DNA of 64,000 nt from Bispira polyomma (Eukaryota), in contig OZ287753.1 in the NCBI GenBank assembly GCA_965649765.1, positions 47,120,001 through 47,184,000 on the forward strand, given 5' to 3'. How positions within the stretch are numbered: position 1 is the stretch's first letter; each line of letters starts with the position of its first letter. Shown here piece after piece: positions 24,825-49,700 of the stretch. The translations under genes were made by a program, and so were the position numbers. The notes below the pieces were generated by a model that saw nothing but the letters and a program-made list of their open reading frames with translations, had not been told where the DNA came from and made no database searches.

Positions 24825-26072
24825 TCACACACAGGTGTCTGAGTAACTACTCGATTTGGGTGCCTCCTCGAAGTTACATATGTTAGAGTAGAGGTTGAAG
24901 TAGTGGTGTCCAGGGCAGCCGTTACCATTACCATTGGCTTGATGACCCGTATTCACCTGTGAATGGTGGGAGTGTGACGACTTAGTGAAGGTAAACCTCT
25001 GTACTGGTTGGGGCTGAATGTTACGACAGAGGATCGCTCTCTGAAACCCTCTGCGGAAGTTTGCCGAGAGGAAGGCGTAGATGATGGGATTGACCGCACT
25101 GTTTCCGTAAGAGAGTACATGTGCAAAGAGTCTGATTGAGAGGAACAAGTAGGTGTTGTTGATGGTGTGTGGGTAGAAGTTTGTCCAGATCCACATCACG
25201 TGTATGGGTAGCCAGGACAGACAAAACACAATGACCACCACAATGATGAGTCGGGTTACTTTACGTTTCTTGTTGATGGACTCCTTCATGCGAGGACCTT
25301 CGGGCTGTTTTGTCAGCCACAGCTGTCTGATAATGAGGACACTGAGCACAAAAATGGCCAGAGAGGGCAGGATATAGCCTAAAATAAACAGCATCAGAAA
25401 GTAGATCTTCCTACGTCCTATCAGATTCCAGTCATCGCTACACAATGGGCCAAATCCCTCATACAGTTGAACTTTGTAGACGATTGGCTGTGGTAGTGCT
25501 ATCGCCAAGGCAATCAACCAGATCACACAGGAAGTAATGAAAGCAACGAGAGGTGTACGCAGGTGCTTGGTTTCAAGTGCGTAGCCCACAGCTAAGTAGC
25601 GATCTGCTGCCATGGCCACCAGGGTCAATATGCTTGCAACCATACTAGAATACTGGACTAAATGTACAAATTTACACATGAACGTCCCGAAGGGCCATGG
25701 AATGGTATAGATGATAGCATGGAAAGGTACGCAGAAGACCAGGAACAGTAAGTCTGCTATGGAGAGGTTTAAGATAAAGAGGTTTGTCGTATTCCGGAAA
25801 TGGTCCCTGTTTCTGACCACCACTATAATCACGATAATGTTTCCTATACAACCAAAAAAAACCACAAACGAGTAGATGACTGGCACAATAATGCGTTCTG
25901 GACCTGGTTCCCAGTCCGTCCCAGAATTCTCCATCACTGCACTGAGGTTAGACTGGTAGTCGTCTATTAACTGGTCACTAGGGGTGACCTCAAGGTCAGG
26001 GGTCCACACCTCTGTATTTCCTGTTTGCTCTGATAAAAGCTTCATGGTATCCAGACTCTCATTGACAGACAT
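24825..26072 (-). CDS. Class A neuropeptide GPCR, galanin/allatostatin-A receptor-like (single coding exon, 415 aa)
   Basis: 7 hydrophobic segments; TM1 GN, TM2 NLSIADLLF...VPF, ECL1 WPFG...CK, TM3 DRY, TM6 WLP, TM7 NSAVNPIIYAFLS.NFR; N-glycosylation sequons NES/NLS; motifs TNLFILNL, CVPF and NPIIYAFLSxNFR typical of GalR/AstA-R. Confidence 0.95.
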   Translation of the reverse strand: MSVNESLDTMKLLSEQTGNTEVWTPDLEVTPSDQLIDDYQSNLSAVMENSGTDWEPGPERIIVPVIYSFVVFFGCIGNIIVIIVVVRNRDHFRNTTNLFILNLSIADLLFLVFCVPFHAIIYTIPWPFGTFMCKFVHLVQYSSMVASILTLVAMAADRYLAVGYALETKHLRTPLVAFITSCVIWLIALAIALPQPIVYKVQLYEGFGPLCSDDWNLIGRRKIYFLMLFILGYILPSLAIFVLSVLIIRQLWLTKQPEGPRMKESINKKRKVTRLIIVVVIVFCLSWLPIHVMWIWTNFYPHTINNTYLFLSIRLFAHVLSYGNSAVNPIIYAFLSANFRRGFQRAILCRNIQPQPVQRFTFTKSSHSHHSQVNTGHQANGNGNGCPGHHYFNLYSNICNFEEAPKSSSYSDTCV

Positions 26073-28383
26073 AGTCGGTGATTATTACATCATTAGTTTA
26101 CAATACTTTTTGTGCTTACTTTTAATGTCTCACAATAAAATAACAGTTTTTTGGGGTGCAGATAAACAATAAACACTCCATTGTTACTGGATAAATATTA
26201 AAAAGAAATAATAATTGTTGCTAGTTAATTACAACCCTCTCTGATCACGATCACAAAATCCCACTGATATTTATTCCTTCAATCGAATCTAGTGCAAGTA
26301 TTATTGTTTCATAAATAAAGCCAAGTATAAGTTTGAAGTAAGAATATTTCCTTGGCTACAGCTTTGCAATAAAGTATATATCTATCCTAGAGCTGACTAT
26401 ATCCCTTTAAACAGCCTCTCTCTGGGGAGAGCTGAAGGCACACTGACTGAAGTACATATCCAGCTTTATCTTATTCCAGCTCAAAGAAAACAGCTCAAGT
26501 TACTCATGTCTTATTTATTGGCAGTATTCCGATCACTCTCACAAATCCTATTGTTTAACAGAGCCCCTTTTTTTATTCAGATATTGAAAACTAATTTATC
26601 CTGCATTTTAGCTCCCAGAGCAAACCAGATCCTTGTGCGGCCTTCTGACATTTTTCACCACCTTTTCTGGAGTTGCGTCTCTAGCCAGATCTTTAAACAA
26701 GCCTCCCAGCCGCCTGTCGAGTGACTTCTGTTCTGACTAAAATTGTGTCTCAGTGTACAGACACTTTCCCTCCTCTCAGCCTATATTGCCCCCCTCTTCT
26801 CTCACCCTCGTTCTACTTAATCCATTCCACTGACTTCACACAATGCCCGGCTGCGTATAAAGCAGAATGCACAGCGTTAATTGAGAAGAACACAGCCTTG
26901 GTGTCTTGACTCGTCCTCTAGGTAATTAGACCAGAAGATGCTGACCACTAAATTAACACATCTTCTGTCTAATGAAGTAAGCAGCACACACACCCTCTCT
27001 CCACACAAACCTACGCTAACAAAACTCTGTCATCTGCATAAGGATGGAGAAACCCTCCTTTCTCTTGAATAGGACCCTTGTTTTAGAAGGGATATAAAAC
27101 CCACACACATTAGTACAGTTGCTTTAATGACGCACCTGGTAGATTAACAAATCTGCAGTGACCGGAACTTGCTGTGGTAGTATTTATTAGTTGTAATTAG
27201 CTACTATCATTAGTGTGTTTCATGATACAACACGCACTGTTACAGAGTTGGTGGTTTTCATTTATACACCACAAGTATACTCAACAGCAGATAAAAGAAG
27301 TATAACAAAATTTATTTAAGGGGAAATATTAAAAAGGAAGCAATGATCTCCTTTAAAATTTCATGATTTATGAGTTTCTCTGTGTCATCACCAAGACCTC
27401 CACTTAGAGTTTTAATTAAAACAAGTGTTACAAAAATACCACTGCCCTTTAAACACACTCAGTGTGTCCTTCATATATTAATTCTACTGAAAAAGTTCAC
27501 CCAGGCTGGAAAATGGCCTTATACAGAATTAATATTTAAGGCAGTAGTTTTCCTAGTTTTATTTTAATCCATCATACACTTGTGTCCCTGTCACTGTTTC
27601 CTTTCCAAGGTCACTGCCCAGGGTAAAATTTGGTGACACCGTTACTGATCTCTAGTTATCCTTCAAAACCACAACAATGGGACACCAGATTTCCTCAATC
27701 CCAAGACCCGACCTTGGTATGAAAAACCCAATTAAAGCAAACCTTCCCGAGGGGATGTATTGCAATTATTGAAGTTTGTCACCACAGGCCAAATGCCTTT
27801 AAGGCGTTAGAAAAAAACTCAGGATAGAAGTACAAATCCACGTTATAATCACCGACGATTTCCATATAGAAGGCAGCAATCTGTCACCAATTGTGAAATG
27901 ACTAAAGTCCAATGATAATAAGGCAATAGATAGAGGTTTTTAGCACAGTTCTAACCAGCGGTAAAATGTCAATTAGAGTCCATTAAGCAGTCCTCTATTG
28001 GTGATGTGCATCCCCATTCACCCACCAGCCACTGATTTCAGGGCAGCAGACTGTGTGTGTGGAGAACTCTGTGTGCTGAGTTTTGGGGGGAGGGGGCTGT
28101 ACTTTATGTGAGATGTGTTCTTTCTAAACGCCTTGCAGAGGATTTCTGGATTTATTGGTCTGCAAATCATGGGAAGTGTTAACTGCAGAGTGTTGTTTTA
28201 GAGGTACAATAGGCCAAATAATAGGCCAAATCAAACTAAATTGTAAGGCATCTGTGATCTATATAGTGATACACCCCAAATGGGTAACCAAGATAGGATA
28301 CAAATAAAACAGGTTCAAATCTGATAAGGTCTTCTGACTTTTTAATAATATTTAGTAAGATATCCAAGTTATGACTTTTCCAG

Positions 28384-32933: not shown

Positions 32934-34137
32934 ATGGCAGCAAAAACGGGATACTGCAAACGATGCAACATAGTTCATTCACGACCTGTGGGGAGACAGT
33001 GTAAACTGGATATAACTGTTGCCAGCACCCCAGCCCCTAGGGGCCGACGTCAAGCGCAGCGAGCTACATGGGAAGTGACCAGTACAACGGAGAAGCAGAG
33101 TAGCAGGACAGACACCCCAGCCGGGGAGCCGGTACCAGTGGGAGACAAACTGAACATTATTCTGGATAAATTAAATCAGCTGGAGAATGACATGAGTGAG
33201 GTTAAAAAAAGAGCAGGGGACTTTAAGACGGACTAAAATGCTAGCACAGGATGTGTCCTCACATAGTTCTCTAGCACGGCAAGGTTACCGGGCTCAATCT
33301 GATGAACTGTACGTGTTTCAATCTGAGACAAGACAGGGTAAAAAAGGTGACCTCGCCTTTGATCCGGAGTATGTGACGAACTACGACGATCTGGATACAG
33401 ATGAAGTGATTCTGCCCAGTCAGAGATTTCTGAAGTCAAATGAGACGATCCAGGCACAAGTGGATAAGCGTTTACAGAGGAACAGATCCCAGTACTACAC
33501 GTCACCTGATAGCGGTAAGAAACTTAAATCAGGGCTTCAACGTACTAATGAACATTCAGTGAAACAAATAATTAATTGGCCCCATGAGCTTTGCTTCAAT
33601 GCAACAGGTAAAAAGCAACCATCTTATCAAGACCTCACCCCTTTAATGTTTTTCCAGGGTTACTTGGGTTGTGTTTTTGAGGAAAAGGATGCAAAAGTGC
33701 GAGATAATATGTTGCAATATGAAATGCAATTAATGAGGGACGGTCTAGAAACCTCGTGGTTTACAGTCAAAAGCGCACATTGCCAAATTATGCTAGAAAT
33801 TGAAAAGGGAAAAGCTAGTTGGAGCAACCTTCCTCAAATACACGAACTCAGGGCCCGTTTGACACAACGTACTCTTAAAGATACTTCTGTTAATGACTCA
33901 GCCCAGGGTAGCAGTTATGCACAAAAAGGGAAACCTAAAAATTCTGTGCTCATGTGTAGTGCATACAACAGAAGGACATGTAGCCAGTCAGATGATCACA
34001 TCTTTGGCTCCATGATATTAAAACACGCCTGTTCGAAATGTTTTAACCAAAATAAGAAAATCCAATTACATAGGGAGAAAGATTGTAGAAAAACTACTGC
34101 TCAAACACGGGATTTCAGTAGGACTAATCAAAACTGA
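32934..34137 (+). pseudogene. gag-like ORF1 of the YR retrotransposon, frameshifted in an A7 run (33204-33210)
   Basis: N-terminal CxxCxxxHxxPxGxxC, coiled coil, GKKLKSG..WPHE motif, C-terminal CxxYN..C..HxCxxC..H..C finger; removing one A joins ORFs 32934 and 33196 (EVKKEQGTLRR). Confidence 0.85.
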
Positions 34138-34458
34138 CAGCCAGTAAAAACTGGAACAGTTTTTGGAACAGTGGCTTTGGTAGGGGCTCAAAAATGTGTG
34201 AAGTTAGGGAACCTGGGGCGAAATTTATAGCACACATGAGAGCAGAAACTGTAAAAGTCATGATAGTTGTAGTACCTGGCTCTATGACCAAGTGGGTCAT
34301 AAGAAGGGTGAAAAAAGTGTTTTAAATGTAAATAAAAATGTAAAAATTATTTCAAAGTATAATATGTGTAGTGGAAATGGTAAAAAGTTTGTCCAGAGGG
34401 CAAGCGAAAGTGTGTATTAAATAGTAGAAGTGGTGATGGTAAAAAGTGCACATATGAA

Positions 34459-36686
34459 GTGGGCTTCCCGCCCTTGCAAAAGAGCAGGAAAATGGCCAGA
34501 AATTGTATAGGTGGATTCCCGCCAAAGAATTCTAACAAACCAATTAGTCCTTTGCAAAACTCTAACAAACAAAGTTTACAAAAAGAAAGTGGTAAACAAG
34601 TTAGCAGTTGTAGTAAACAAAAACAGTTCAACGAGTGTCCTAACAAGGACAAGTTAGCGAGTCGTGTCAAAAGTAGAAGGGTGGCAGTCATTTCCCCCCC
34701 TCCTGAGGTATGGGGCGCGAGGTTGACAGATACAACAAACATAGTGAACAATGTAAGCAGGGTTTCTCCCCCTCGAAGTCAGTCAATCAATTGTCAGGGC
34801 GAACCCCTAATTGCCTCATTTGAAGAGGCTAGTTCACAGAGTGACACCAATGTTCAAAAAACCCTTTCTCCACCCCCCCCCCCCCCTTCTGTAGTCGCAG
34901 TGGAGTGTCAACCAATTAAGGGAATTGGTAAGAGTTGTATAGACCGAATGCGTGGTAAGTCAAGTGACAACTTTGGCTTTCAGTGTATATTTAACTTGGT
35001 GGGTTGTACACCCACGTATACCAATCCAATTGACTTTAACTCGCTAGAGCAATGGGCTCTTGAGGCACACAAAGTGGTGGGTGACTGGGGGGGTCCTAAT
35101 TACTTGGGTGCTCGGGCACCTGTCCCTTCTGAACTCAACATAGCTGCTTGGCATCAGGTATTAATGGGGTATGAAGATAGGTTACTTCCCGAGTACTTAG
35201 AGTTTGGCTTCCCTCTGGACATGATGCATGAACACTTTAAATTTAATGATGACGTCAAGAACCACGACAGTGCAGTTAAGTTCCCAGATAGTGTTGACCA
35301 GTACTTCGTTACGGAAAGGTTACATAAGGCGATAGCAGGTCCTTTTAGTGAAAAGCCATATACGTCTTTGCACTACTCCCCTGTCATGACTAGGCCTAAG
35401 GATGACAATTCTAGAAGACTTATAGTGGACCTATTTTGGCCGCATGACGCTATGTCAGTTAACAGCATGGTAACAGAGGGCAGATATGATGGACAAGATT
35501 TTGTTTTAACTTTACCCACCATAGACATGTTGGTTGACCAAATTAACAAAATTGGCCCTACAGCGAAATTGTACAAGCTGGACCTCTCGAGGGCGTTTCG
35601 AAATTTGAGAATCGACCCGGGTAATTACAAATATACAGGCCTGAAATGGCGCGAAAAAACCTACATAGACCTTGCAGTCATGATGGGATACAAACACGGT
35701 ACGGCGGTTTGTGAGCGAGTAACCGATAGTATCCGCAGGCTAATGAAGACTAAAAACTACAAAATTTGGAACTACATCGACAATCTAGTTGCCGTAGAAG
35801 AAAGTAGTAGGGCCCACAAATTGTACAAATTGATAGAGCATCTTGGTTTACCAATAAATCCCAAGAAAGTATTTTCCCCGGCAGAAGAGGTCATATGCAT
35901 GGGAATACTAGTCAATGCTAAGAAGGGTACCCTTAAAATACCGGATGAGAAATTAAACCAAATAAAGGAAATGTGTAAGTATGGCGAGCAAAGCAAAACT
36001 GCAATAGAAGAGACTTACAATCAATTCTAGGAAAACTTTTGTACATACATCGTTGTGTCGCTCCCGCTAGATTGTTTCTAAACAGAATGCTAAAGTTGCT
36101 CAGGGAAACCTATCCTAGTAAAAGTATTAAACTAACTAGAGGGTTTAAGGCTGATTTGGAATGGTTTAACGAATTTCTGGGTGATTTTAACGGGGTGGTT
36201 GAGATGCATCTCAAGGAAGAGCCAGTGTTGGGACTATATGTAGATGCCTCACTGGTTGGTAGTGGGGCCATGTGGGCGAACAATGTTTATGCCGCAGCTT
36301 TACCAGAACACAAACTTGAGTCATTCGGAATTGTCCATTTTGAGATGTAGAATATTTTGGTGGCACTACGTGTGTGGGGTAAATGTTTCAAAAATTGTAC
36401 AGTAAAGCTGTGGTGTGACAATGGGGCTGTGGTTGCAGGGTTAAATTCTAGTAGATTCTATGACGCAGGCCTTGGTATTATGGCAAGATCCACCTGGTTA
36501 GAAAGTGCTAGAAATAACATAAAATTGGATGTGGTCCATATCGCTGGCATTAAAAATGTACAAGCTGACTACTTGTCGCACATGTTTATTCCAGGGCACA
36601 AAAACAGCAGAGTCCATGAGCAAGTTATGCAGAAAAAGTGGTGGAAAGTCAGCCAAAGCGATGTCACATTAAATACTGAGTTTTAA
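34459..36686 (+). pseudogene. Reverse transcriptase-RNase H (pol) of the YR retrotransposon
   Basis: GFPL, GPF, RLIVDL.WP...SVN, KLDLSRAFRNLRIDP, YIDN (from YxDD), GLPINPKK, MGI; frameshift near 35980 into LQSILGKLLYIHRCV..ARLFLNR; RNase H YVDAS, HFEM*N (TAG 36348), WCDN, NVQADYLS. Confidence 0.92.
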
Positions 36687-36692
36687 TTTCAG

Positions 36693-37672
36693 GTACACCA
36701 ATTCAAATTCTCCTATCTCAAGCAGCCAACGCTAGGCTAGAGTCAGCGATGACTCTCAAGACGCGGCAGGCCTGCAATAATTGTATAAGACTTTTTCTTG
36801 CTTTTGCTGTATTCATTGGAGCTGTGGAGCTGGTGTCCCTGCAGTTTATCCTTCAATTCTGCGAATATCTGCAAATAGCACAACAGGGGCTCAAACCCCC
36901 CTCAATTCAAAACTACTAATCAGCAGTCAAGTACTATTTCCACTTGTGGAATTTTCCTGTGCATGTCTTTGCTCATGCACAGCTAAAACTATTTTTCAAA
37001 TCTCTTACGTTATCTACCCCTTATACACCCAGGTTGAAGGGCATCATAACCATTCCTATTCTAAAATCCATCCTTTACCAGGCCTCTGCTTTTCCACATG
37101 CATACATTTATAAAGCACTATTTGCAACTGCTTTCTTTGGATTTTTCAGATTATCAAATTTAGTCCCCCCTAGTACTTCCCTCTTTAACCCTCAAAGACA
37201 CTTAACGTGTGAAGATTTTATTTGGGGCCCCCCTGGGGTGCACATTGTCCTCAGGTGGGCTAAGAATTTACAAAAATATAATCAGTTTCATGTGGTGCAG
37301 TTGCCTGCTTTAGGATCATCAGTGTTATGCCCCGTGGCAGCACTAAAGGTAATGTTTAAAATAAACGAAAATGTAAAAGAAACTCCAGTTTTTATGTATA
37401 AAGTCAACAGGCAATTAGTGCCCCCCACAGCTTTTAAAGTGCGGCAAGTATTAAGAGAAATTATAGTCTCTTTAGGCTTGAACCTGCAGTCCTTCGGTTT
37501 TCATGCATTTAGACATTCTGGGGCAACTCTAGCGTTTGACAACAACGTGGAGTTGCAATCCATCATGGGTCATGGTGGTTGGCGATCATCAGCAGTATGG
37601 GCCTATCTGCAGTCAACTCTTAATGCCTCTTCAACAGTAGCTAAGTCCCTACAAAAAATAATATTACACTAA
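36693..37672 (+). pseudogene. Tyrosine recombinase of the YR retrotransposon (one in-frame stop at 36917)
   Basis: Frame opens directly after acceptor ttttaatttcag; N-domain ARLESAM..T...FLAF..FCEYL..GLKPPSIQNY*SAVK; catalytic FFGFFRLSN, WAKN, HAFR, GHGGWRSSAVWAY. Confidence 0.92.
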
Positions 37673-39764
37673 AAATTCTATGGCGTTTGGGCATTGTAAT
37701 ATGTACATAGTTTTAGTACTTTGTAAGCTAGTTTCTATCTTACAGTTTAAAATAGAATTTCACCTTTACCTTAAAAGGTTACACATTAAGGTAACCTAAA
37801 CATAAACTTGTAAGTTAACCTTAAAGTCAAGGTAATGTTTAAGGTCACCTTAACAAGTGGCTATTTGTAAAAATCATCAGATATATAATTTAGGATGACC
37901 TTAAGTCATCTGCTTAACATTATTTTAAGGTGACCCTAAGTCACCCCTCTTCAAACCTAAAAGAAAATGTTTTAAAAAATCATCATTGTAAATTTAATTT
38001 AAGGTGACCTTAAGTCACCCTCTTCTTTGCCTAAGGTAAAGGTTAACTGTATAATGTTTATATGTGTGGTGACCTTAAAATTTGCAAGGTCACGGTTGTG
38101 ATGTAATGAAATATGTAAAATGTACTAACCATGTTAACAATAGATGTTAGTGTAGATTTGTATTTAATAAATGCCCAAAGAGATACGCCAATGCATTTCA
38201 TTCCATTGTCTATATCACTTTGCACAATACTCAGGGGTGGCCACGTTGACTGATGGAATTTTGTCATTTTCCTAGTGATTATGAAGGTCTGATCTGACCA
38301 AAAGATTGTTAAAGTTTAATCTGATCCAAGTCATTTATTAAGTTGGTCTGTTCTTGCTGCTTATTTAAGGTTTATCTGTTTATGTGGTTATAAAAGTGTT
38401 CTGATCCAGGTGATTGTAAAATTTATGTTTTATCTGTTTTATTTGATTATGAAAGTGATCTGATCCAGGTGATTGTTTTTCCTGAAAGTTTAAGTAACTC
38501 ATTATCATTCTGCTTTGTGTTGTTACCAAGGGCAGACTTATCTAATGCATTTTGTACCAACATATTAAAGTTTGTTGTAAGAAATGCTGAAACTAGTAAA
38601 CTGCACATGTCGACAAATAGGACCACAATATATTTAATTTGAGATGTTTAAATAAATGATTACAAAATAGTTGGGTAAAAAACTAATTGACAAATTACTA
38701 ATTTCCCTTTCAAGTAAAAACCCTAATTACATCCCTAGAAACTACTGCAGACGTCAAAAGTGTCAAGCAAGATCAACAGCTTCTAGTTAGGGCAACAATA
38801 GCTAGCACACTCCACCATAGCCTATTGTAACACCTTATGTAAAATGTATAAAAACATCATCGTTATTAAAAGAAGGTCTTGTTCAAACAATGAGATGCAA
38901 TAAGCTGTATTTATGGACTCCAACACATGTTGTGCTAACAGAGCCAATGGATTAAGTCAATAGAAGCTGGTGATTGCTGTTACTTGTTAGGTTGTGTTTC
39001 CGGTGGTTTTAACTGCACAAACATATAGTACAGCACTTTATAGATGAGACTGCATGAGATAAAACAGAATTTATTATTCGACCTTGAGCCCGAAATATTA
39101 AGTATTTACAGTTGCTTTGTGGTTTCTTTTTCCAGTTCTTTAACCATAAAATAGATAAGAGTAAAAAATAATGCACATAATAAACTTGTAGATACAGGAA
39201 AGAACTTTTATACTTGACCTTCAGTCAGTAGTTGACAAAAACAACGGATAGAGTAGGTTTAAGTTGGGTTGCATCAAAAATCCTTACATTAAGCCCACTA
39301 ACATTTTAGTAGGAGTGTACCTAAGAATAAAAAGCAAACCCTGGATTGAAGCACTTTATTACATTAGTACACCAGTGAGGCATATTTAACAAAACTTCAA
39401 TCATTTTTACTCCAGAGATTAGATTGCTTTTCCTGTTTTGGAGTTTTAGTTATATATAAAGGACCTTTTTATGGTTGTAAAAGCACTGCTAACTTTGTTG
39501 TGGTTTCCTTTGTATAAAGGAAGCAGTCTTCACAAGTACACACAGACTTACTTACACCGTGTACAATACATCTATTGTAATACGTAGATTTAAATTTATT
39601 ATAGATTGTGATTCAAATTCATCAACACAACATATTGGTTCTTGGAATCTATAAGTCATTTGAAGACCTTCAAGCATTACCTCAATTTTTGAAATGGAAT
39701 TCAGACTATAGCAAATTGATTGTGGGCTGAGTCAACATATTCTTGGTTCTGACTGTGTAGTGTT

Positions 39765-40935: not shown

Positions 40936-43515
40936 AACTAGCATTTACGATCATAGGAAGATGGTCATCCACACGTTGAGTCCCACAATTGCTGCAGATA
41001 TATCGCAAGCAAAACTAGAATAGTTATTTTTTTAAACAGTTTTTATATATTTTGCATCCTGCTCACAACAGGATTAATTGAATGCATCCCCTCCACATAC
41101 AGAATCACCTTAAAAGTGTTTTGTGAATACATATACTGTACCTACACAAGAATTTGAGATTTTGTATTGAGTTAAAAATCTTTTTATTCTGTTCAGATAT
41201 TCACTCTACATACACCTTTGCTGTTGTGTTATACATATGTCATTAACCAATCATGTCTCTTTACACAAGGTTGCAGACAAATACCCTAAATATCCCCTTA
41301 CAATTCCATGCCTCGTGTAACACATTTTCTGTTACAAAGAACTATTGACAATGGAAATACAAGACAATGAAATACTGCTAAAACGTGATATATATTGCCA
41401 GATTTTGTCTGATGCTGTTAGTATGGGTGTTAGGGCGTCGTATAGTATCACTTAGCTTATTACTCACCAATAACAATAATCTAAAATACCTAGACAAATA
41501 GCCATTGTTTTCACCAGACACGCTGGAGACAGGTGAATTTTTCCATTCGAACACTGCAACAGTTGAGAGTAGCCAAAAGTGGTCACTTTTGGTTGTTGAA
41601 ATGTATTGCCATGTTCGAGGAATAAAGTTCCATAGTTTAAACACTCCTGTGTCAAATCATTTTCACCGGTGCAACATCTTGACCCTTAACGCCATAGAAA
41701 AGCCATGATTCCTCATCATTATAGTTACCCTTACCAACCATAATTTACCTTGGCGAAATCATAGCTTCCCCTCACCCGACTCTAAAGACAAATGAGCTAA
41801 AAAAAATATTTTTGGAAATTATGCTTGTTAATTCACCACATTTTATAAAAAATATTGGACAACTTTCAAATTCACGATCAGACTCAACATGATTAAAATG
41901 TAAAAATGGTCAGAATATGGAATTATATATGGGCTGAAGTATCTATCCATGCAATAATCTATGTGACAGCTTATATGTGACACATATTTAAGGGACTATT
42001 TCTCATTTGCATGTTTTGATATATTTAGCTTGTATAAATATAGTACATTACGGAAACATAACCTTTTGATTTTTTTTATTGACTTGTACTGACATTTCAT
42101 CAGTTTAACATGACGAAAACCTTATCTGGCTAACTATTCTTATATATGTAACCATTGTAGCCATAATAGGCTTCCCAGACTAATGCAATGGGAAATCTAT
42201 TTAAAGTTTACATCTAATTAACACAATATTTTTTTAACAACAAGAGTTATTAAGCACAGGTAAAGTGACACTCGTTCAATATGTTTTACTTTCCTCAGAA
42301 AACATACAAAGGGATTTCATAAATATATAAAACATTCCTCTATGGCTATTTTTTAACAAAAATATTTCAATTACTCAGAATGTCCCTTGTATATATCTGC
42401 TGACATCTTATATTATCAATGTGTCCCTTAACTAATCCCTAGAAAGAAATATACTAAACAAAATATTAGTTAAACATCTTAAGGACCATAACGTTAAGAC
42501 AACTAAACTATACTCAGTTGGAATTTGAATTTCTGTGGGTTTATTTCACTTCCAGCACCTTTTAATGGATTTTATCCCTGTTTACTATATTTGAAACTCC
42601 TCATAGTGCAAAGAACTATGTAAATGGGCTTGTTTAACTACCAGCACTTTAGTTACATGTTACCATACATTTTAGCTTCAACCTTTTCGTGTTAAAATTG
42701 GACATGAAGCTGTAAGCATTCCTACAGCCAGCAGATAAAAGAAGAATGTTCTATATCCACAAGCATACATTTGCAAAGCAAACATTTGATGATATGTACA
42801 TCACATTTAACACATGAACCACACATTAACACACGGACTATCCTTTAACTGCATGTAAGCCTATTTTTTTTAAGGATTTGGTGAAACTGGTTGCAATCTT
42901 GTTTTGTGGATTTGGCCCATAAGTCAGTCTCATGTACTATATCACAGAAGACATGCAAGTTTGATAGTAGTTCCGGGATTAGATTTTAAATAACTTTAAG
43001 CACCAACAAGGTGGCGTGAATTAACCATTCAATTGTAAACAACACTATTTATGAGTGTAAACTAGAGTAACAGATCTAAGTACACTGAAAACAGCAAAGG
43101 TTTAAAGATACAAGGGCTTAAGTATACAGATAAGTACTAGGGGGGGGGGGGGGGGGGGGGGGAAGTATAGTGCTCATAAAGAAAACACAAACATTTACTT
43201 CCTCAATTACTTAGCAAAGTGGAAAAAGATTGTTCTTGAGATGTAGATGTACACTTATCATAACAGTGTTCTACTGAACTTAAGTTTATGTTTGAAAAAC
43301 AACAAGAAATTAGACTTCCACAAAGCAAAGCATTGTTTTTGCTGAACTCAAGTTTATCTTCATAAAAATAAAACTTCTACAGCCCTGATGTCGTTTATCA
43401 GTAGATAATTATCGCACGTGGTTAAACATTAAACAAGGTCAGACGGTTATAACAGTGATCTCAGGCGACAGCACCAGAATTAGACACATTAGCACTCAAC
43501 GATATTAAATTAACT

Positions 43516-43578
43516 CCCCGCCTCAATTTTGTAGGTCTTGCGTTTTATAAAACGCTACTTCCGTTTAGCATGACGTCA
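43516..43578 (+). promoter_or_regulatory. Compact Pol II promoter: GC box, TATA, ETS, CRE
   Basis: ccccgcc (43516), tataaaa within palindrome gcgttttataaaacgc (43540-43555), acttccg (43557), tgacgtca (43571), ~70-130 nt upstream of ATG 43647 in a locally CpG-rich patch. Confidence 0.6.
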
Positions 43579-43646
43579 CGTTACTCTCTCGTTTGAAATT
43601 GTAACGGTTCAGTTTTTTGTAACTGGTAAATATTGTTGAAATAGTC

Positions 43647-43815
43647 ATGTCTAAAGATATGATCTGTGAATCTACATACGGCCATACGATGTACCAACCT
43701 GTGAGCTGTTCACAGCTCTTCAGAAGCAGGCACAGTGTGATGCCCAGATGGTGTAAAAGAATGAAAATAGGCTTAGCCCGTTTTGGCCGACGTTTGAGGA
43801 GGCGCTTTAGTAACA
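43647..43815 (+). CDS. Orphan gene exon 1 (Arg/Lys-rich N-terminus)
   Basis: gtcATG start; MSKDMICES...KRMKIGLARFGRRLRRRFSN; donor aaca|gtgagt, phase 1. Confidence 0.7.
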
Positions 43816-44735
43816 GTGAGTGGCTTAAATGTTGTAAACAAATGGTAAAAGATAGAGTAAACAACAGTTCTGTTATTTGATTTTAATCTCGGACATCTAA
43901 TACAGCATAATTTTTTTATCGTGTTGCGTAACGTAAACAATCGCACATGGGCGTTCATATGATAGGGCATACAGGTCTTATTGATTTGGGACACATTGAT
44001 TTGAGACACAATAAATTTGAGGTTTTTGGGTAAACTATATCTATTTAAATTACAATGAATAACATCAATAATATTCAAGCATTTATGAAAATAAGTGAGA
44101 ACTTGTATGTTTTATGTTATCACCGTCTAACATGGGTGTACACTGGTGAGGCAATTCTGGACATACAGATATTCTGGACGAATATAACAACACTTTAGTG
44201 TATAGTGACTGTGTGTATACATCAACCAATATTAACATGCAACCAATATTAATATGCAAGTGTCCGAAATAATTGTGTGTCCCAATTTAATGTGACCCGT
44301 GTACCATCATTCCCTCAATCAGGTTATTTTAGAACTAAACCACAAGAATTATGGTTAACTATTACACTGTTAAAATGTATTATTTATTTTGAAGATGTCT
44401 TATCAATTATGTACAAAAAAAACTCTTTGGTTTTTATTATTGATATTGTATTGTTGGGTCTTGTTGATTCGATTTTTGCCATTTTTCTTGATGAAACAAA
44501 TGTGTTTTGAACCATTTACATTGCAAAATAATATTTTAATATCTCTAGATTAAAATACAGCCCGAATTTTCGCGAAGAACGGTATTTGTAAATGTAATAA
44601 GCCTACAAAGAAGTGGTTAAAATTTGCGAATTTACGAGACCCAAGGCTACAATCCAAAGTCAATTTTAACTAGTGCAAAGTAGAGTACAAGGGTTATTTA
44701 ATTTACTGGCTAATGTTAATTGTTTGCGATTCCAG

Positions 44736-44846
44736 AAACCCACCCAGCTTCTGCCAGTCAGTACATTAACTGTGGCTCTCCAATGCTTGAGAAGGGTGTA
44801 TGTGTTCCTCAGTCAGCGCCAGAGCTTGCCAAGAGCAGAGTCTTAG
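44736..44846 (+). CDS. Orphan gene exon 2 (111 nt, repeat module 1)
   Basis: ttccag| ... ttag|gtaata, phase 1-1, open: THPASASQYINCGSPMLEKGVCVPQSAPELAKSRVL. Confidence 0.78.
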   Translation, partial: KPTQLLPVSTLTVALQCLRRVYVFLSQRQSLPRAES

Positions 44847-45108
44847 GTAATAATTATATGAATAAAACAGTTAAATGTGATACATTAACGTAATAATTAC
44901 ATGAATAAAACAGTTGAACGTCTATACCATAATTACCATTAGTAATCCTCACTGTTTAATATGATAAATAACACTGTAATTTAAAATTGTAATATAATAT
45001 TAAGCTGTAATTCTTGTTGCATAGTGCATACCATTACTAATCGTCACTGTTTATTGTGTAATCTGATACATACTACTAATTAATGGGACTTTTATTTTAC
45101 TGTTACAG

Positions 45109-45219
45109 AGAACCAGCTCGTTTCTGCTGGTCAGTCTGTTGACCACAACAATCATTTGCTGGCTAAAAGGCTACTCGACATTCACTCTGCTCCTGAGATT
45201 ACTGCACACAGACACTTAG
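45109..45219 (+). CDS. Orphan gene exon 3 (111 nt, repeat module 2)
   Basis: ttttactgttacag| ... ttag|gtacat, phase 1-1, open: NQLVSAGQSVDHNNHLLAKRLLDIHSAPEITAHRHL; paralogous to exon 2. Confidence 0.78.
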   Translation, partial: RTSSFLLVSLLTTTIICWLKGYSTFTLLLRLLHTDT

Positions 45220-45674
45220 GTACATAACAGGGTTTTCTATTGGAATTAAGTGCATTAAAATATCGGTGTTCCTCTTCTGTACTACAGTAATGGTGATACA
45301 GTGTATTATATTATTAAAATCAAGAAGTCTTGAGGTATAGTTCATAATATACAGGAACATGTGTGGGTTGTTGTTAAGCTGTTGATTTGTCTGTGTATTG
45401 CTGTGTGTTATTTATTTGTGAATGAAGTTTTGTATGCCATTGAAATGTGTTTATGCTTATTAAATTCATTTATATGGATTTGTAAATATTAAAATTGTAT
45501 GATAAATTGATAATGGTGAAATTAAAGTTGAAATAAAAATACATGTAATAACACTATTTCAGGCTTGTCAGTTATTTCACTATGTATTGTTTAATTCTGA
45601 ATTATATCCAAACTTATATGTTGTTCGGAAGTGACTTCAGTTGTAAAAGTTGCCATTGTATGTTACACTTATAG

Positions 45675-46186
45675 ATGTTCATCTTCATGATGAAGTCTCT
45701 GTCATTAGTGGGATCAATGAGCCTATGGATGAGTCTATTAATGCTGTGAGAGACAGTGTGTCTGTGTGTGCCAGTGAACTGTGTGATAAACTCTTTATGG
45801 ATGACTCTGATAGTGACATTGTAAATAATACTGACTGTGACTTGTTTGACTATGAAAGTGATGTAACATCAGGTTTTTGTGAGGACAATGTGCTGTTGTA
45901 TGAGAGTTGTGTCTCAACAGATACTTCTGTATGGAGTGTTGAGAGTTTGCCAAATGACTGTTCTCTTAATTTTCTGACTATGTGTGATGTGAATGACAGT
46001 TTGAGGTTAAATGCTTCTGTGTGTGAGGAGAATAATATGATGTATGAATTGAGTAGTAGTAAGCTGGATGATTATTATAATAGTATGTTTGATGAAGTAG
46101 AACTTGATAGTGTCACTTATCAGAGTTATGAAAGGGTAGATGTGTTTGATGATGAACTCTATGTGTTCAATGGTGATGTGTTTTAA
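45675..46186 (+). CDS. Orphan gene exon 4 (Asp/Glu/Ser-rich acidic C-terminus)
   Basis: cacttatag| acceptor, phase 1 in frame with ORF 45650..46186; 170 uninterrupted codons in AT-rich DNA ending in TAA. Confidence 0.75.
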
Positions 46187-46214
46187 GGTCCCTAATGTCA
46201 GTTTTAAAAAAAAA

Positions 46215-46755
46215 TTAAATGAAAGATAAGTAATTTTTGACAGCCTATATCTTTGAACAGAAAAAAAATATCAATTGGTTTAACTTGTTTACAAGTCTGT
46301 CAAAACAAGTTCAAAACTCTTTATTTAGTAAGGATAATCATCCTAATTCAGTAAAGTTTTGTCATTTTCTTTTTTAACAACAAAATCTGGTTTCAGAATT
46401 GGATAATAAAATCTTTCTTTTGACAAAATGATATTTTAAACTCAGGTTTCTCCTTATTATGTCTGAATATAAAATTAGTAAAAGATACATATTAATGAAA
46501 GATATGCAATGTCTGACCGCTTATATCTCTTTACAGAAATACCAATTCGTTTAACTTGTTCACAAGTCTTTTAACAACTCTTTCAGAACTTTATTTAGTA
46601 AGGATAATCAGCCTAATTCAGTAAAGAATGTGTCATTTTCTTTTTTCACACAAAATCCAGTTTTATAATTGGATAACAAAATATTTGTTTTGACAAATTA
46701 TTATTTTAAACTCAGGTTTTCTCTTTATTATTGCTATGAATACAGAATTAGTGGA
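46215..46755. repeat. Tandem duplication, ~277-bp unit x2
   Basis: atgaaagata...tatatct...tttaacttgtt.acaagtc...tttatttagtaaggataatca.cctaattcagtaaag...ttttaaactcaggttt at ~46215 and ~46492. Confidence 0.9.
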
Positions 46756-49700
46756 TTTATTTATAATGTGATATCTTAAACATGTAGCTTCGTAATTTAA
46801 TGGTATGCTTACAAGTTGTTACTTTTCCATAGTTTATCTGATGTGTTTGATATATGGAATACATATTTTATATTGTATACCATTTGTTAAGTTTTAACAA
46901 TAAAATATAAATGGTATTACATGTATTTTAATATACTGTAGACATTAATTACGACTGAAACATCTAATCCAACCATTACGTAGGATGGCAAAATACAGAA
47001 TTGTGGTTTTGGACTATATCTCGGGAACTGCTGGTACTTGTCAATACATGTCCATATTTTCTAGATTGCTACAAATATCCATAATGGAGTGTAGCTTTAC
47101 AACACCCGACCTACTTTCGAGCTTTAACCTTATGCACTTGGCCTTCGGACTATATCTCTAGAACTACTGGTCAATGAAAGTTTAGGTTGCTAAAACATTC
47201 AGTGGAGGTGTAGATCAATAGAGTTTACTGTTATATTTTAATCTACTTGTCAAAATACTTTCAAATTTGGTACAAATGCCTGCAGCTTGTACAGTCATGT
47301 AGATGTTTATTTTCAGCTCAATTGTACAGTCAAACCTCTGTTAACATGTTGGCAGAGCAAGATTGTAGTCAAATAAATTAGAAGAGAAGGTTAATAAATA
47401 TTCTAAAATATACGATACTTTGGGTGAAAATCAAATTTGAATCAATAGACAAATGTGAATTAAGGAGAGTAAAAGTGCTCATAAAATTGACTTTTCAGAT
47501 TATAAAAGTTTGAATAACAGGTTCTACCTTATTTACCCTGGCAATATTGTACTCTGTGGCTGTGTACTCCAGTATATCTGATGCTTAGTTTGCTTAAGTG
47601 TATTATCTTTAACGTCACGGAAATATTTTGTAAGATACACTGCTTTGAGATAGTATATACAGTTATTAAATTGCAATCTTGGTGAGACCAAAAAATAATT
47701 TATTCAAAGATTTTAATGGAAAAGTATTGAAGTAAAAATATACATGAAAATGATCTTCAAGTGCAAAGCAATCAAGATGTCACTTGCATAATTTTTTTTG
47801 AAAATTCACTATTAGATCAATTCATAAAACCGCAGAGGTCAAAAAAACAGATGTCAAATCAACAGGGCTGTGATGTTTAGGTTGAAATCTGTTTATGGAC
47901 TTTTAAGTTAAAGCTAAATCAATGTTGTATTGTGAATCTACAGCATTGTACTTCTACAGAATAGAAATGCTCCTTTTAATCCTCAGGCGACCTTATATGT
48001 GTAAGATTACCTTTCAAGAAATATAAAAAGTTCATCAATAAAACAAAATAAATTCACAAAAGAAACTGATGTGTCCCAATTGAGGCATTTTATATCAATC
48101 ATAAAAAGCCCTTGATAAATGTATTAGTGTTAGTTAGCTATTGGTTTTATATGTAGGGCTGCACTACAAGATTAGGTGGCACTAATTGTACAGATTGACG
48201 GTAATTGTTTTTGAAGTAAAAGTTTTGTGTATTTTTTTTCTATAACAATATACATAATTATATAATCTTTTTATTATTAAATTATACCCTAAAGGATCCA
48301 ATTTTTCCCCAGATTCACTAAGATACTGACTCTAACTTTCAGAAAGAAATGCCACACCCTTTTTTGAAATGGCACCAAGTGTTGATGAAATGATGAATAA
48401 CAATAAAATCTCTAATATTAAGTTACTCAAGGAAGATGATAATGCTCATTGCTGTTGAGTCAGAAGTCAGGAAATTTTTTGTCCGCCTTATCACAGTGCC
48501 ATAGTCATTCTCTGAATGTAGGAATATAATGCAATCAAGGGACCTGAAAGTACAGTAGATTACTAGTGTGTTGCCTTTCATTGTAATCAGCTTTTGACAC
48601 ATCTACATTACCTCAATAGAATAAATAGGCAATGCTTTATGTACTTCCTAACAAACAGCTGTTGAGGTTGATATGCACAATCTAACTTCTTGTAAGACCA
48701 TGTCACTGATTGTCTTTTATTTCTCTGTGAGAGATGTATCTGCAGAAATATCTTTACAACCACTGCTAAGTAATAAAGATATGTTAGACCTTTACAGAAC
48801 TCATAATTACCAACATTTTAAATTTCTGAATGGCAGTGATACATTGGTTCAGATGTCTAGTTTTACATTATTAGTTAAGCTGCACTGCCTTTTTATTATT
48901 TTCTTTATAAAATAGTCAACAATTCTTTTTGTGGCAATATATAATCAATTTGTCCATTTTCAAAGAAGGTCCTAATTGTGACTAGTTATGACACTTTGTG
49001 GGAATATTTTAGCTAGTTATGTTCATAAGCATATACAGTGCAGGCTTAATAATCTGATCAAGTTGAACTTAAGGAAACCCTCCACCACTAGCTATACTAT
49101 AAGTATCTTACACATAAACTCTGTTATCCAGAACATAATATGTTCAAAATTAGCTGCTCCGGTTATCCAGGGCAAATCTGCAGCACTGAAATGTTGCGAC
49201 ATGTGGAATGTTTGGATGGCAGAAACAAATGGATTCTGAAAAACTAAGGTCTGGGTTTCTTAGTGGTACTGTTGTATGGTGCAGTTAACATTGCAAAAGT
49301 GAAAATACTTAACCTAATACAAAAGTAAGGTGGTTTTTTGTCAGTATTTTTTACCTAGTGCAGTGGGGTTATTCTGAAGTCTTGTTTGTAAGTACAAAAC
49401 GGTATTCCAGAGACCAGAAAAAAGGCTAGTAGTAGTAGGACGGTTGGCTTTTCTTACTATTTTAGCACTTTCTTCCCCCTGATATCACCTATACTGTATA
49501 TATTACATAACAAGTACAATTGTATATTAATTTATTGTACACATTCCCATTTAAATAATTGTATACAGTATAATCATAATGTATACATAATAGTCTATGG
49601 TATTGCTCCCAAAATGATATAGTCTTCATTGAATATCTTTACCATATCTAACAAAACCTTTTTATACACTTCTCCTATATTTTTGGTAAAAATATATAAT

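Follow-up and report, generated by a model that had tools for sequence, protein, structure and literature searches.

A tandemly duplicated symmetric exon pair in a predicted multi-copy orphan gene family of Bispira polyomma

Introduction

Protein modules that have spread by exon shuffling are exemplified by the EGF and FN3 domains, which belong to class 1-1. For exons that are duplicated in tandem, the available part of a study of human genes (PMC3632108) gives similarity between adjacent exons in 9.3% of the genes with at least five exons, the same phase type for 65% of the similar adjacent pairs, and an association of symmetric exons with disordered segments. Among rapidly changing multi-copy families, copy-number change and repeat expansion are recorded for the wtf genes of fission yeast (PMC6526906), and in mammals the ampliconic VCX and VCY genes encode acidic and basic proteins, respectively (PMC7706723); the comparisons made below refer to what these sources state in the portions available.

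The work described here concerns a 64,000-nucleotide stretch of the Bispira polyomma genome (assembly GCA_965649765.1, contig OZ287753.1, positions 47,120,001 to 47,184,000 of the forward strand), which is referred to as the window and within which all simple coordinates are given. A preliminary description of the window, made from the sequence alone, had drawn attention to two short adjacent exons, which were held to be paralogous, symmetric and under protein-level constraint, and which were suggested to represent an unrecognised modular repeat. We report here on the gene in which these exons are predicted to reside, on the related copies elsewhere in this genome, and on how the pair compares with the systems noted above.

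Results and discussion

The predicted gene and its surroundings

Based on splice signals and on the paralogs described below, a gene of four exons and 300 codons without a stop is predicted on the forward strand of the window. Its first exon (43647..43815) consists of 56 codons plus one nucleotide and ends in phase 1 at the donor A/GTGAGT, whereas the last exon (45675..46186) would encode a 169-aa acidic, Cys/Ser-rich tail of low complexity, which is followed by the stop codon. The donor of exon 1 is identical in 14 of the 14 tabulated copies of the subfamilies A, B and C (the subfamilies are defined later) as well as in all nine copies of an array on contig C1, and in subfamily D it is of the GTAAGT type. 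The first exon is basic (13 K+R versus 2 D+E) and the last is acidic (39 D+E versus 5 K+R in 166 aa). Within exon 1, AlphaFold2 predicts a basic amphipathic helix at residues 34-55 (43746..43811, forward strand; pLDDT 79-92), whose hydrophobic moment exceeds that of shuffled sequences in five of the five copies considered (8-238 of 5,000 shuffles reach the observed value). Near the end of the last exon lies a conserved acidic-aromatic motif, YYNSMF...ELYV..GDVF (46064..46183, forward strand), which is found in the window copy and in subfamily B only, the proteins of subfamilies C and D ending differently. A secreted acidic biomineral protein was considered as an identity for the product and rejected, as exon 1, inspected by eye, lacks a hydrophobic signal stretch.

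Upstream of the predicted ATG, at a distance of 76-89 nt, the window contains the motifs CTTCCG and TGACGTCA (43558..43578, forward strand), which we take to be of the ETS type and the CRE type, respectively. Of the 13 copies inspected, 12 have a similar pair in the 220 nt upstream; the ETS match is absent from one subfamily B copy, and the spacing differs in subfamily C. Both motifs occur together in 1 of 290 bins of 220 nt in the window, and this promoter-like pair is a candidate promoter element.

The nearest paralog, on contig C2 at 45.79 Mb, shares with the window the stretch 43207..47609 (forward strand) at 82-93% identity inclusive of introns, and the flanks of this stretch are unrelated between the two loci. 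In this paralog the last exon is internally duplicated and the conserved C-terminal motif has been lost. A high-copy repeat within intron 1 (44451..44647, no strand assigned), visible as a gap in the alignment with the contig C2 paralog, from which it is absent, reaches a summed contig depth of up to 95,000 in one sequencing run (X1). A unit of about 250-280 nt occurs as two direct repeats in the 3' flank (46220-46753), both here and in the contig C2 paralog, and a run of about 24 G (43139-43163) lies beside the left end of the shared stretch. For the segment 44847-45153, the depth of window-identical contigs in comparison with those of the C2 type is 9 versus 17 in run X2 and 6.8 versus 19.4 in run X3, whereas in run X1 the two are equal (51.9 versus 52.4); as this depth is not a copy number, the roughly halved depth of the window allele in X2 and X3 is at most a hint of hemizygosity. 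The contigs of these three runs are DNA-like; they include the window allele and the C2-type allele but no splice joints, and so speak neither for nor against expression.

Two further features of the window may be recorded. At 33196-37672 (forward strand), gag-like, reverse-transcriptase and tyrosine-recombinase open reading frames follow one another as in retrotransposons of the DIRS order. The Pfam matches, to RVT_1 (E=3.5e-5) and Phage_integrase (E=2e-4), fall short of the curated cut-offs, and the 3' flank of the element (37700-38260) is multi-copy. On the reverse strand, at 24825-26081, a single open reading frame encodes a rhodopsin-family GPCR (7tm_1, E=2e-61), whose best homologs among named proteins come from annelids and nemerteans and are called 'galanin receptor-like'.

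Two tandem copies of one symmetric exon

The two internal exons of the gene model, viz. exon 2 (44736..44846) and exon 3 (45109..45219), are both predicted on the forward strand and will be referred to as modules 1 and 2. Each is 111 nt long and of phase 1-1, this being the sole open frame for them among the frames that join exon 1 to exon 4. Both are flanked by AG and GT with pyrimidine-rich acceptors (TTCCAG and TTACAG), and both end in TTAG/GT. When aligned without gaps, they are identical at 11 of 36 amino acids, a value that was reached in 0 of 100,000 shuffles, and at 61 of 111 nucleotides. A recount has thus borne out the length, phase, exon ends, residue identity and SAPE codons given in the preliminary description, and its view that the exons are paralogous and symmetric holds. 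Homology between the intron flanks of the two exons was not found (29 and 30 of 300 shuffles score as high). Based on these observations, exons 2 and 3 are old tandem copies of a single phase 1-1 exon.

The argument for purifying selection had rested on the codons of the shared SAPE tetrapeptide (44813-44824 in exon 2, 45186-45197 in exon 3), which read TCA GCG CCA GAG in the former and TCT GCT CCT GAG in the latter. However, these synonymous changes do not constitute independent evidence of selection, since they lie in fourfold-degenerate codons that were picked for the identity of their residues. Given 11 identical residues out of 36, an identical run of at least four residues appears in 7,207 of 50,000 shuffles (14%). 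Over the whole pair, 20, 21 and 18 of 36 sites are identical at the first, second and third codon positions, respectively, so that the third position has diverged scarcely further than the other two, and the 36 codon pairs comprise 5 that are identical, 6 that are synonymous and 25 that are nonsynonymous.

Module copies in the family and their number

Searches of the genome with exon 1 identified at least 27 copies of the gene on 10 contigs, plus one copy consisting of the tail only; these counts are lower bounds. Weak exon-1 matches on contigs C8 (14.8 Mb) and C2 (25.3 Mb), where the profile gave nothing, were left out, and two further loci (C11:32.99 Mb and C5:47.59 Mb) were rejected as family copies, as only upstream DNA is common to them and the family. 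The copies fall into four deep subfamilies, viz. A (n=2, the window and contig C2), B (n=16), C (n=3) and D (n=6). Subfamilies A, B and C each include copies with two phase 1-1 exons in the same place, the counterparts of module 1 being 111-114 nt and those of module 2 being 111 nt in length. Since each of these subfamilies has a two-module copy with the exons so placed, the duplication should predate their divergence, and a single duplication before the split of A, B and C is the simplest reading; the tree of the modules is star-like with six lineages, and it is compatible with a single duplication without demonstrating one (p-AU 0.245). The internal phase 1-1 exons of subfamily D are of other lengths, and the module profile found no match in them.

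The number of modules per paralog is either one or two and it varies by genomic deletion, as the preliminary description had anticipated in pointing to the copy-number variability of symmetric exons. In two copies on contig C10, about 270 nt including module 2 have been deleted, and a 247-aa tail is still in frame. In one subfamily C copy, on contig C2, module 2 has been deleted along with the start of the tail, and in another copy of this subfamily module 1 and a LINE are the last parts that could be recognised. All three subfamily C copies carry a LINE-like insertion directly after the module-1 donor and look broken. The suggestion of an unrecognised modular repeat was, however, an overstatement: none of the copies examined exceeds two modules, searches of the genome with two module peptides gave matches in this family only (4 and 1), none was obtained in Pfam or the PDB, and the fold predicted by AlphaFold2 is of low confidence (pLDDT 64, pTM 0.26, with a low-confidence helix at 6-25, from a shallow alignment of 14 sequences). 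No residue is invariant among the 14 aligned modules, and disorder-promoting residues outnumber order-promoting ones in six of six modules, in three of them narrowly.

Selection on residues and on reading frame

Selection was assessed with a one-ratio codon model compared with omega=1 (own script, F1x4, FastTree topology). For exon 2 versus exon 3 omega is 0.70 (p=0.43), over subfamilies A, B and C it is 1.12 for module 1 and 0.88 for module 2, and for the 21 distinct modules pooled it is 0.88 (p=0.49). Hence the codon-based test over module copies, which had been proposed with the claim of constraint, detects no purifying selection on the residues of the module as a whole, either between the pair or in the pooled set. 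In contrast, omega is 0.57 (p=0.002) for the whole of exon 1 and 0.36 (p=6e-4) for its residues 33-56, and for the C-terminus, taken from the window copy together with subfamily B, it is 0.13 (p=6e-7) over the last 40 codons and 0.10 (p=9e-5) over the last 23, the helix and C-terminal segments having been picked after viewing the alignments. Because the same code detects selection at exon 1 and at the C-terminus, the test has power. Selection on residues is thus located at the two ends of the protein, viz. at the basic helix and at the C-terminal motif that the window copy shares with subfamily B.

An average omega near 1 can mask a mixture. Across the six module lineages, residue conservation fits a neutral codon model (P=0.26-0.37). 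Within subfamily B, module 1 shows 16 nonsynonymous changes versus 1 synonymous change (omega 5.5, p=0.04), but this is 1 of 10 tests and it is not significant once corrected for that number; this excess could reflect positive selection rather than drift.

The reading frame and splice sites of the modules behave differently from their residues. Among 38 module exons in 21 genes, many of which are near-identical, there is no stop, no frameshift and no lost AG or GT, and 38 of 38 are of phase 1-1. Stops and frameshifts at a neutral rate, which the preliminary description had named as evidence against its reading, are therefore absent, none of the 38 exons being broken. In neutral simulations, all six lineages remained free of stops in 5 and 30 of 20,000 runs, and in none of 20,000 were they stop-free with the splice sites also kept, this frame test being partly conditioned on the detection of recognisable exons. 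Among six subfamily B copies, gap intervals number 0 in 225 module nucleotides versus 44 in 1,163 intron nucleotides (expected 8.5, P=2e-4), and between subfamilies A and B exon 1 and module 2 align (z 10-33) whereas the three introns do not (z -0.8 to 0.3). Divergence of the modules (pS 0.050, pN 0.070) is below that of introns (0.109; Fisher p 0.08 and 0.04, respectively), which hints at a measure of constraint, possibly acting on splicing signals; a contrast in variable columns between the C12 and C13 copies, inflated by a poorly aligned C9 intron, was not used for rates. Frame and splice sites of the modules are thus clearly held, while their residues change about as freely as neutral DNA. 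Of the protein-level constraint that had been proposed, the part that stands is the retention of frame and splice sites together with a weak patch of conservation at SAPEL (considered below), and the part that does not stand is constraint on the amino acid sequence as a whole.

A probable spacer between two conserved ends

These results are probably best explained by exon duplication of an ordinary kind within a length-tolerant spacer, in which the frame is kept and the residues drift. According to this explanation, a symmetric exon would have duplicated in tandem inside the predicted four-exon gene, and the modules would serve as a spacer linking the basic helix of exon 1 to the acidic C-terminal tail. 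The frame of a module can be constrained in the absence of any function of the module itself, because a stop or frameshift within it would cut off the tail, and the in-frame loss of module 2 is tolerated, as far as the reading frame is concerned, in the two contig C10 copies. As for the protein, it may be a two-ended adaptor, in which the basic helix would anchor to something acidic and the acidic, disordered tail would bind a partner with the participation of its terminal aromatic motif. The helix would most likely serve in nuclear import and attach to chromatin or nucleic acid, an acidic membrane being the alternative. The spacer explanation is likely the firm part of this proposal, whereas the cellular role as an adaptor is a guess that we offer tentatively and consider more doubtful than not.

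A different explanation, which narrows the idea of the preliminary description, is that the exon is a motif cassette. Each module would then contain a functional short linear motif (S-x-P-E-L/I), perhaps a site of phosphorylation or docking, whose dose would be set by duplication, skipping or loss of the exon. The SAPEL window is indeed the best-conserved stretch of five residues across the six lineages (566 of 20,000 column shuffles reach its value; codon simulations give P=0.028-0.040), which may point to a weak degree of extra conservation and to a short motif that may matter; intact-frame copies carry either one or two modules, and symmetric exons are reported, in the available part of PMC3632108, to be enriched in short motifs. 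However, both modules of subfamily B deviate from the motif (NAPKL; SESEL or PESEL), the omega for whole modules is not distinguishable from neutrality, no more than two modules are seen in any copy, and the internal phase 1-1 exons of subfamily D have no detectable similarity to the module, and we regard this explanation as rather unlikely. A 14-3-3-type site at SAPE was rejected, as the Arg at position -3 that forms part of the 14-3-3 consensus is missing.

Organization of the family and its bearing on other explanations

The arrangement of the copies bears on whether the gene spreads for reasons of its own. On contig C1 (56.78-56.90 Mb), nine tandem units of 14 kb each contain an intact subfamily B gene, and all nine encode the same exon-1 and module peptides. 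Contig C10 contains, at approximately 20.007-20.125 Mb, a palindrome whose arms measure about 60 kb each and are 99-100% identical, and which could be real or an assembly artefact; each arm ends in one of the subfamily B copies without module 2, and a short inverted tail-only copy adjoins it. Subfamily B copies on contigs C13 (26.79-26.86 Mb), C8 (43.57-43.61 Mb) and C10 (20.08-20.14 Mb) lie in blocks with 95-98% identity that extend over more than 60 kb between C13 and C10 and about 37 kb between C13 and C8, and two subfamily D copies, on C4 (51.93-51.97 Mb) and C2 (39.62-39.66 Mb), have at least 40 kb in common at 97-99% identity; both sets are recent interchromosomal duplications. The blocks contain internal satellites and nested retroelements, and in BLAST and open-reading-frame listings, with block ends partly mapped, neither common termini nor a transposase were seen. 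Several family copies are broken, and one subfamily D copy (C10:24.15 Mb) carries an in-frame internal duplication inside the basic helix of exon 1.

By analogy with known conflict genes, the modules might form the positively selected, diversifying surface of a germline or selfish conflict gene that spreads by segmental duplication. The features in accord with this include the number of copies and contigs, the nine-copy array, the palindrome arms and the interchromosomal blocks of more than 60 kb, the presence of broken copies, the nonsynonymous excess in module 1, and the combination of a basic head with an acidic tail. Nevertheless, the sole result with omega above 1 that is suggestive of selection does not survive the correction for ten tests, ordinary genes also amplify by segmental duplication, and no sequence similarity to any known driver was found in Pfam or among the protein representatives, and this explanation is accordingly unlikely. 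Its stronger form, in which these genes would constitute an undescribed selfish or germline-conflict family of a lophotrochozoan, with exon cassettes acting as a fast-diversifying and copy-variable specificity region of a basic-helix/acidic-tail protein, so that the family would be the animal counterpart of the wtf-type drivers, is quite unlikely. Should both germline specificity and biased transmission be established, the family would provide a molecularly defined conflict gene in a lophotrochozoan, which is a rarity.

It may also be asked if the gene is cargo or an accessory of a DNA transposon, with its exon structure being incidental. Dispersed copies do keep their introns and promoter, and the window and contig C2 copies have just 4.4 kb in common between unrelated flanks. 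However, the blocks are of widely different sizes (4.4 kb, about 8-9 kb, 14 kb, at least 40 kb and at least 60 kb) and end differently, no terminal repeats or long open reading frame are common to them by BLAST and open-reading-frame listings (a check that a spliced transposase would escape), and the open reading frames in their flanks look like nested retroelement fragments, which makes such an origin improbable. Lastly, it is highly improbable that the exons arose by chance, are non-coding or belong to a pseudogene in neutral decay, for although module omega is near 1 and several paralogs are broken, the similarity of the exons was not matched by any shuffle, frame and splice sites are retained, both ends are under purifying selection, the promoter-like motifs are conserved and the window copy is an uninterrupted 300-codon model.

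Relatives outside this genome

Large protein databases were queried with exon 1, and among 1.84 billion protein representatives its profile gave a single match (E=3.5e-5), viz. an unnamed ENA protein (P0002) of 175 aa from a contig of 1,011 bp. The match covers exon-1 residues 21-72, beyond which the protein runs on as ...NSE, similar to a read-through of the same donor. It resembles exon 1 of the window but differs in its low identity (about 25% over the exon-1 region), and it is absent from the B. polyomma genome, in which its best match is 28%; in the ESM Atlas it obtained chance-level matches only (best 0.83). No relatives of the exon-1 profile were found among longer proteins (777 candidates), and P0002 was alone among proteins of near length. 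Of 176 pattern matches for exon 1 in metagenome contigs none was confirmed, no relatives were found in phages, Pfam gave no match, and the PDB gave nothing meaningful (best E 0.16). The DNA pattern of the tail motif occurs at 56 metagenome loci, none of which is backed, beyond the motif, by the module, exon-1 or tail profiles. A literature search at the level of concepts found nothing on this orphan family; for a gene and species that it could not address by name, such a search does not demonstrate absence from print. Within the reach of these searches, we encountered no description of the family.

Significance and comparison with known systems

The exon pair is a clean but ordinary exon duplication, which is an ordinary route of gene growth, and it shows that the frame and splice sites of an exon can persist for long while its residues drift, and that three synonymous codons do not amount to evidence of selection at the protein level. 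The family is more interesting than the exon pair, as it has no named relative, at least 27 copies, and selection at two short ends.

In comparison to class 1-1 modules of the EGF and FN3 type, the exons described here are similar in their phase 1-1 boundaries, their length of about 36-37 codons and their occurrence in tandem copies. However, they differ from such modules in showing no purifying selection over the whole module, no confident fold and no invariant residues, and in searches of this genome, Pfam and the PDB the module was found in no other gene. The module thus does not conform to a shuffled class 1-1 domain, as neither purifying selection on its residues as a whole nor occurrence in unrelated proteins was detected. 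With wtf and VCX/VCY, as these are presented in the portions of the sources available, this family may be likened in being lineage-restricted, multi-copy and fast-changing, with internal gain and loss of repeats, in having strongly charged regions of low complexity, and in its palindrome and tandem array. It is, like the ampliconic families, multi-copy and lineage-restricted, with turnover (at least 27 copies versus one outside match in 1.84 billion). However, there is no homology to these genes and the copies here reside on many chromosomes, and it will be incorrect to interpret this likeness as more than an analogy in genome behaviour. The closest correspondence is with tandemly duplicated symmetric exons of the kind described, in the part of the source available, for human genes (PMC3632108). 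The present exons differ from these in belonging to an invertebrate orphan family and in being predicted from DNA, and they resemble them in being adjacent, homologous and of equal phase within a protein that is largely of low complexity. In the features tested, viz. the homology of neighbouring exons and the equal phase on both sides of each, exons 2 and 3 thus conform to tandemly duplicated symmetric exons.
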